Of a stretch of DNA of 64,000 nucleotides, positions 59,159-59,985 are shown piece by piece. The position numbers and the translations under genes were made by a program. A model generated the notes under the pieces. The model saw only the letters and a list, made by a program, of their open reading frames with translations. It ran no database searches and was not told where the DNA came from. Source of the stretch: Escherichia coli. GTDB taxonomy: Bacteria; Pseudomonadota; Gammaproteobacteria; Enterobacterales; Enterobacteriaceae. Position 1 is the stretch's first letter. Every line of letters begins with the position of its first letter. Where the stretch lies: assembly GCF_003334305.1 (NCBI RefSeq), contig NZ_QOWS01000011.1; one strand, given 5' to 3'.

Positions 59159-59905
59159 ATGGCATTACTGGAAATTTGCTGTTACAGCATGGAATGTGCA
59201 CTAACGGCGCAGCAAAACGGCGCAGACAGAGTTGAATTATGCGCAGCCCCAAAAGAGGGGGGCTTAACGCCGTCGTTGGGGGTACTGAAATCCGTGCGCC
59301 AGCGGGTGACGATCCCTGTGCATCCGATAATTCGCCCACGCGGTGGTGATTTTTGCTACAGCGACGGTGAGTTTGCCGCCATTCTTGAGGATGTGCGCAC
59401 GGTCCGCGAATTAGGTTTTCCTGGACTGGTGACGGGCGTTCTCGATGTTGACGGGAATGTCGATATGCCACGAATGGAAAAAATAATGGCTGCTGCCGGT
59501 CCGCTGGCAGTGACTTTTCATCGCGCCTTCGATATGTGCGCTAACCCTTTATATACACTCAATAATCTTGCGGAATTGGGCATTGCCCGGGTACTGACAT
59601 CAGGGCAAAAATCAGACGCACTGCAAGGTTTATCAAAAATTATGGAACTTATTGCCCATCGTGATGCTCCAATCATTATGGCCGGAGCAGGAGTCCGTGC
59701 AGAAAACCTGCACCACTTCCTCGATGCCGGAGTGCTGGAAGTCCATAGCTCCGCGGGAGCGTGGCAAGCCTCACCGATGCGTTATCGTAATCAAGGATTG
59801 TCCATGTCATCAGATGAACACGCGGACGAGTATTCGCGTTATATCGTAGACGGGGCGGCGGTTGCTGAAATGAAAGGAATCATTGAACGCCATCAGGCCA
59901 AATGA
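59159..59905 (+). CDS. cutC: copper homeostasis protein CutC (248 aa)
   Basis: ATG at 59159 preceded by TAAGGAG; translation [31 protein letters not shown]... Confidence 0.9.
59644..59672 (+). promoter_or_regulatory. candidate sigmaE promoter inside the cutC coding region (MicL promoter)
   Basis: GGAACTT - 17 nt - TCCAA within the cutC ORF; predicted TSS lies about 308 nt upstream of the cutC terminator. Confidence 0.5.
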
Positions 59906-59985
59906 TTTTTACCGTTGCATCATGTCGCCCAATATGATGCTTGCTCGTACCAGGCCCCTGCAATTTCAACAGGGGCCTTTTTTTA
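59678..59985 (+). ncRNA. micL: candidate sigmaE-dependent sRNA MicL (RyeF), embedded in the 3' part of cutC
   Basis: Sense-strand intragenic promoter plus shared intrinsic terminator give a transcript of about 308 nt. Confidence 0.5.
59952..59985 (+). terminator. rho-independent terminator after cutC (shared with MicL)
   Basis: AGGCCCCT ... AGGGGCCT stem followed by T6. Confidence 0.8.

Follow-up and report, generated by a model that had tools for sequence, protein, structure and literature searches.

A K-12-type micL small RNA gene within and behind cutC in an Escherichia coli genome

The small RNAs (sRNAs) MicA and RybB depend on sigmaE and on Hfq, act by repressing outer-membrane proteins of high abundance, and exert feedback on sigmaE. 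MicL resembles them in all of these respects, but whereas MicA and RybB are encoded by independent intergenic genes and have numerous porin targets, MicL lies inside a coding gene, and lpp is its sole established target. The arrangement of MicL is matched by that of DapZ of Salmonella, a 3′UTR sRNA that has its promoter inside the dapB coding sequence and ends at the mRNA terminator. DapZ, however, has HilD as its regulator, acts on different targets, and has no sequence relationship to MicL. As with the CpxQ/ArcZ-type sRNAs, RNase E frees the active short form of MicL from a longer RNA (10.1101/341578), but for CpxQ this longer RNA is the cpxP mRNA itself, and CpxQ lacks a promoter of its own.

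MicL was formerly known as RyeF (Guo et al., PMC4102768), and SlrA is a further published name for it. Published work in K-12 has shown that MicL represses lpp, which encodes the most abundant lipoprotein of the outer membrane, by blocking its translation, with decay of the mRNA following, that overproduction of Lpp raises sigmaE activity, that MicL lowers this activity, and that sigmaE-depleted cells are rescued by MicL. A mutant of the MicL promoter, PmicL, reproduces the copper sensitivity that was once blamed on the loss of CutC (PMC4102768). MicL is the textbook warning that a phenotype assigned to a protein, in this case the copper sensitivity of cutC mutants, can stem from an RNA embedded in its gene. 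In what follows, sequence identity, anatomy, structure, and the conservation of promoter and seed come from the present analysis, and sigmaE dependence, processing, Hfq binding, the lpp target, and physiology come from published work on the identical K-12 sequence.

The window, by which we mean the whole 64,000-nt stretch of E. coli DNA analysed here, contains this gene. A whole-window Rfam scan found a match to RF02654 (MicL) at 59677-59984 (+) with 381.9 bits, against a gathering score of 56 (E = 2e-115), and the match covers model positions 1-308, which is the full model without truncation. The stretch 59608-59992 has zero mismatches to E. coli K-12 (100% identity), and in the K-12 RefSeq record an ncRNA, micL (b4717), is annotated at the corresponding position, where it overlaps cutC at its 3′ end. 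The MicL ends given by Guo et al. 2014 (PMC4102768) correspond to positions 59677, 59905, and 59984, in exact agreement with the Rfam match, and the RefSeq micL, in window coordinates, is 59678-59984 (307 nt), with a start one base after that of Rfam and Guo et al. The sole difference from K-12 in 59608-60014 is at position 59993 (A in K-12, G here), and because it lies 9 nt past the 3′ end of the RNA, it should leave MicL unaffected. The features of the locus are collected in Table 1.

Table 1. Features of the cutC/MicL locus, in window coordinates.
Feature	Position	Strand	Remarks
cutC coding sequence	59159..59905	+	248 aa, from the list of open reading frames; hosts the promoter and the 5′ 228 nt of MicL
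PmicL −35 element, GGAACTT	59644..59650	+	7/7 against the sigmaE consensus; lies in cutC
PmicL −10 element, CTCCAA	59667..59672	+	Lies in cutC; TCCAA at 59668-59672
MicL primary transcript	59677..59984	+	308 nt; Rfam match, K-12 micL (b4717), 100% identity to K-12
cutC stop codon, TGA	59903-59905	+	Followed by a 79-nt 3′ UTR
RNase E cleavage site	59904..59905	+	Inside the TGA stop codon; generates MicL-S; published
MicL-S	59905..59984	+	80 nt; processed active sRNA, the cutC 3′ UTR
Stem-loop A of MicL-S	59917..59940	+	9 bp, 6-nt loop; minimum-free-energy structure
Seed, UGCUCGUACCAG	59942..59953	+	MicL-S +38 to +49; pairs with lpp codons 6-10
Intrinsic terminator, common to cutC and MicL	59952..59984	+	Stem 59952-59960 / 59970-59978, 9 bp, G+C-rich

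An earlier note on this DNA, made from the letters alone, had proposed that an intragenic sRNA of about 308 nt with the architecture of MicL/RyeF runs from a start inside cutC to the cutC terminator, at 59678-59985. The length and the identity both hold, the former through the Rfam match and the ends of Guo et al. and the latter through the full-length Rfam match and the identity to K-12 micL, and the alignment to the annotated micL that the note had suggested as a check gives 100% identity. The proposed start is that of RefSeq, but the proposed end is one base too far, position 59985 being the A after the T-run. Two further ideas of the note also proved correct: repression of lpp by MicL is established by published compensatory mutations, and the 3′ part of cutC does double duty as coding sequence and sRNA gene, with the two features overlapping on the same strand. 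The locus can, therefore, be regarded as a positive control, in which a sequence-only reader recovered a gene-within-a-gene sRNA to within one base.

The features of MicL that can be tested by sequence are all present, the −10 element being the one imperfect feature. We put the probability that this region is the micL gene of E. coli, with the proposed pathway from sigmaE through MicL-S to lpp that is set out below, at about 97%. The identification derives from the Rfam match, the identity to K-12 micL, and the conservation among orthologues, and not from the promoter motif. In its promoter, RNA, host gene, ends, seed, and terminator, the locus is identical to the described MicL (RF02654, K-12 b4717); it is a plain K-12-type MicL, MicL itself and not a relative, and, as the feature is already known, there is nothing new at 59677-59984.

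The host gene differs from K-12 cutC (b1874) at a single base, 59281, and this change is synonymous. A 351-nt MicL region is found in 5425 of 5426 complete E. coli genomes at an identity of at least 95%. The one remaining genome gave no match to this region, yet it matched a wider 1.2-kb query, and could be a case of natural deletion or disruption of micL. MicL is easily overlooked despite its presence in nearly all of these genomes, as the PGAP-annotated E. coli records among the genomes matched here list cutC alone under the MicL region, without an ncRNA feature. Three E. coli genomes have an IS1 within the 1.2-kb query, which lies past the terminator in the cutC-torY spacer; in NZ_AP045736.1, the only one of them examined, the transposase gene begins some 115 nt beyond the terminator of MicL, which is intact.

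The earlier note had started from a GGAACTT and a TCCAA on the sense strand of cutC, which it read as a sigmaE-type promoter. Both are found there, and Guo et al. 2014 (PMC4102768) showed in K-12 that the promoter is sigmaE-dependent. GGAACTT is the −35 consensus of sigmaE (PMC6648896, PMC3326320), and the −10 consensus has a “GTC” core (PMC6648896), of which the TC is present in CTCCAA, with C in place of G, the same as in wild-type K-12. When CTCCAA is taken as the −10 element, the spacer between the two elements is 16 nt (59651-59666), and the start at 59677/59678 is 5-6 nt past the end of the −10 element (59672). According to Rhodius et al., the optimal spacing of sigmaE promoters is reportedly about 16 nt. 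A scan for sigma-70 promoters gave nothing at the PmicL site, but such a scan is irrelevant to a sigmaE promoter.

The promoter motif alone is weak evidence and is not significant in a window of 64 kb: the pattern GGAACTT-N15-18-TCNAA has one match in the window against 0.13 expected, and at least one match occurs in 13 of 100 shuffles. These numbers are compatible with a chance promoter-like motif in cutC and no independent transcript at all, the supposed sRNA being just the 3′ end of the cutC mRNA. We regard this as exceedingly improbable, as GGAACT and CCA(A) are fixed across 16 species, both at synonymous sites and at a codon with a changing amino acid, and as the sequence in the published experiments with a GFP fusion, TEX treatment, and a promoter mutant was identical to the present one. 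SigmaE induces a GFP fusion to the minimal PmicL (−65 to +20) (Guo et al., PMC4102768), and a sigmaE-dependent 5′-triphosphate end at 59677/59678 has already been published for K-12.

The constraint on the promoter becomes apparent from a comparison of orthologues. The cutC loci of 26 Enterobacterales species were collected by a DNA pattern on the conserved VTFHRAFDM motif and placed in a codon alignment, and promoter conservation was counted in 16 Enterobacteriaceae cutC orthologues. GGAACT is invariant in 16/16 of these and is the sole invariant run of at least 6 nt in cutC outside of the ascertainment motif; TCCAAT is found in 15/16, and Glu163 is encoded by GAA in all 16. Third-position conservation over codons 162-172 is 0.75, as compared to 0.53-0.60 elsewhere in cutC. 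The promoter is under strong purifying selection.

It could be argued that the conserved bases reflect only constraint on the CutC protein or codon bias, and that the Rfam match reflects only cutC homology. In line with this argument, coding sequence makes up the 5′ 228 nt of the Rfam model, and the Rfam score drops with CutC divergence and is below the threshold in three species. The pattern at individual codons is, however, not that of a protein constraint. Codon 162 encodes M, T, G, or R across the 16 Enterobacteriaceae, and yet its third base, with which the −35 element begins, is G in 16/16. Pro171 is CCA in 16/16, and is the only fixed four-fold-degenerate codon among 97 amino-acid-invariant degenerate codons. 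Synonymous conservation equal to that of the promoter was looked for elsewhere in cutC and was reached by 0/206 other 11-codon windows. Finally, conservation is higher in the non-coding MicL-S than in the coding sequence, with 47/80 invariant positions (59%; 13 Enterobacteriaceae) versus 35% of the cutC coding positions. Protein constraint and homology by themselves are thus hardly credible as an explanation of the locus, and the reading as a micL gene with a selected sigmaE promoter is retained.

Extra synonymous constraint or conservation of structure was also looked for in the 5′ 228 nt of MicL, and no excess was found there: third-position conservation is 0.54 (68 scored codons, 175-244), as in the rest of cutC. 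Because there is no excess conservation, the coding portion of MicL resembles a passive leader, in agreement with published work showing that RNase E cleavage needs only the 3′ hairpins and not the 5′ sequences, and that a deletion of 222 nt has no effect on processing (10.1101/341578). The double duty of cutC can thus be refined, in that the dual-coding constraint sits on the 29-bp promoter and not on the 228 nt of transcribed coding sequence; the orthologues illustrate dual coding of this limited extent, with the remainder simply transcribed as a leader.

A second refinement concerns the active species, which is MicL-S, a processed form of 80 nt that falls almost entirely within the 3′ UTR. 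In K-12, MicL-S was identified as a processed RNA by its TEX sensitivity, and RNase E cuts in vitro at the position of its 5′ end, with two 3′ stem-loops setting this position (10.1101/341578). MicL-S is predicted to fold with −28.8 kcal/mol (z = −5.15) into two hairpins with a single-stranded seed. The first hairpin, stem-loop A, is the positioning element for RNase E cleavage (10.1101/341578), and in 14 orthologues 97.6% of its cells are paired, with compensatory changes at 3 pairs. The second is the terminator, with a loop of 9 nt and seven T at 59978-59984; here 99.2% of the cells are paired, again with compensatory changes at 3 pairs. For both hairpins together, with the structure taken from the E. 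coli row of the alignment, 98.5% of the cells are paired and 6 pairs are compensatory, and none of the controls, whether shuffles or a slid structure, comes close. The cutC/MicL terminator was missed by a consensus terminator scan with a loop limit of 8 nt, which the 9-nt loop exceeds; the hairpin is real despite this. The terminator is the probable Hfq-binding 3′ end, with Hfq binding taken from published work (10.1101/341578).

The dependence of RNase E cleavage on the 3′ hairpins and not on 5′ sequences (10.1101/341578) might suggest that MicL-S comes mainly from processing of the full-length cutC mRNA, as a 3′UTR sRNA of the CpxQ type for which the internal promoter is dispensable, and Serratia bockelmannii, in which the seed and the terminator are present and the homologous codons are without a sigmaE motif, is in line with this. 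In K-12, on the other hand, a double mutant of PmicL (C-to-T in the −10 and A-to-G in the −35 element) leaves the CutC protein unchanged and nearly abolishes both MicL and MicL-S (PMC4102768), and no sigmaE-dependent transcript is seen upstream of cutC (PMC4102768). The strong purifying selection on the promoter likewise argues against it being dispensable. We consider cutC mRNA as the main source of MicL-S to be very unlikely. The synonymous-site pattern and the published promoter mutant contradict each of the three alternatives, which together account for a few percent at most.

The pairing of MicL-S +38 to +49 with lpp +16 to +28 was proven by compensatory mutations (Guo et al. 2014, PMC4102768). 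The sequence GTACCAG is invariant in 14/14 aligned orthologues, and GTACCAGGCCCC is kept in 13/14, with one G-to-A in Shimwellia as the exception. The published core forms a duplex of 11 bp with one bulge and −16.2 kcal/mol, for which K-12 lpp stands in, as the window is without lpp. An assignment of lpp as the target by energy only was rejected, as the start regions of 6 of the 57 long open reading frames in the window score as well. Unconstrained RNAduplex runs of MicL-S against lpp were also set aside: they produce long, looped duplexes that take in the terminator (z = −2.5 versus shuffles), and among 1826 segments of the window, 177 do as well as lpp. Because duplex energy is not specific, the lpp target rests on the published genetics.

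Taken with the published work, the anatomy of the locus is consistent with the following pathway. Under envelope stress, sigmaE-RNA polymerase would initiate at the promoter within cutC codons 162-172 and yield a 308-nt transcript from 59677 to the cutC terminator at 59984. RNase E, positioned by the two 3′ hairpins, would then cut in the stop codon of cutC and free the 80-nt MicL-S (59905-59984), which, bound to Hfq, is expected to base-pair through its seed (59942-59953) with lpp mRNA codons 6-10. Translation of lpp would be blocked and the untranslated mRNA would decay, and the resulting decrease in Lpp would lighten the load on lipoprotein and outer-membrane biogenesis, thus providing a feedback that lowers sigmaE activity.

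Guo et al. (PMC4102768) reported conservation of the promoter only as far as Cronobacter and Enterobacter. Among the species compared here, the promoter motif and the seed occur together in 14 Enterobacteriaceae; beyond those 14, a −10 element with CCCAA is found in one species, and one locus is truncated. Neither the motif nor the seed is present in 8 outgroup species (four Photorhabdus, two Yersinia, Edwardsiella, and Serratia oryzae). Klebsiella sp. BIGb0407, Shimwellia pseudoproteus, and Enterobacter sp. R1 are below the RF02654 gathering score, yet the promoter and MicL-S are present in each of them. The 308-nt Rfam model consists for the most part of cutC coding sequence without RNA constraint.

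Two species outside of the Enterobacteriaceae have similar elements. Rahnella bruchi (Yersiniaceae) has AAGTACCAGGCCCC and a terminator after cutC, as well as GGAACT-N17-TCCAA at the same cutC codons. Serratia bockelmannii has AAGTACCAGGCCCC and a terminator about 85 nt after the cutC stop codon, without the promoter motif at the homologous codons. In both species, GCGCAAGUACCAG is a candidate complement of lpp codons 6-10 (CUGGUAC...GCGC). Neither reaches the Rfam threshold for MicL, and a literature search on MicL in Serratia, Yersinia, or Rahnella turned up no specific report. The presence of both modules in Rahnella bruchi and of seed and terminator only in Serratia bockelmannii is the basis for a tentative suggestion, to which we give somewhat less than even odds: the MicL module may have a longer history and more flexibility than has been described, in that an lpp-targeting 3′ UTR could have come first, or been fed by processing of cutC mRNA alone, with the sigmaE promoter added or lost separately.

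Several other features of the window were noted. A full-length Rfam match to C0465 RNA (111.6 bits) is found at 45609-45686 (−), which is tar-cheW intergenic by K-12 synteny. The three tRNA genes at 27086-27385 (+) correspond to the K-12 glyW-cysT-leuZ cluster, just downstream of which K-12 annotates the sRNA 3′ETS-leuZ. K-12 further annotates MotR, FliX, AzuR/azuC, SdsN, and AsflhD in the region covered (about 41100-41220, 17100-17270, and others, placed by synteny only), and none of these was reported by the Rfam gathering scan of the window. At 39923-39930, the window is without the IS1H that sits upstream of flhDC in K-12 MG1655, which marks its source as an E. coli other than K-12, and at a junction near 7937, about 1.2 kb of K-12 sequence is missing (2011215-2012431, yedN pseudogene / intG remnant). 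Finally, the central part of fliC at 16072-16995 has no K-12 alignment at the megablast level, and its flanks are 92-98% identical; the divergent centre presumably reflects a different flagellin (H) type.
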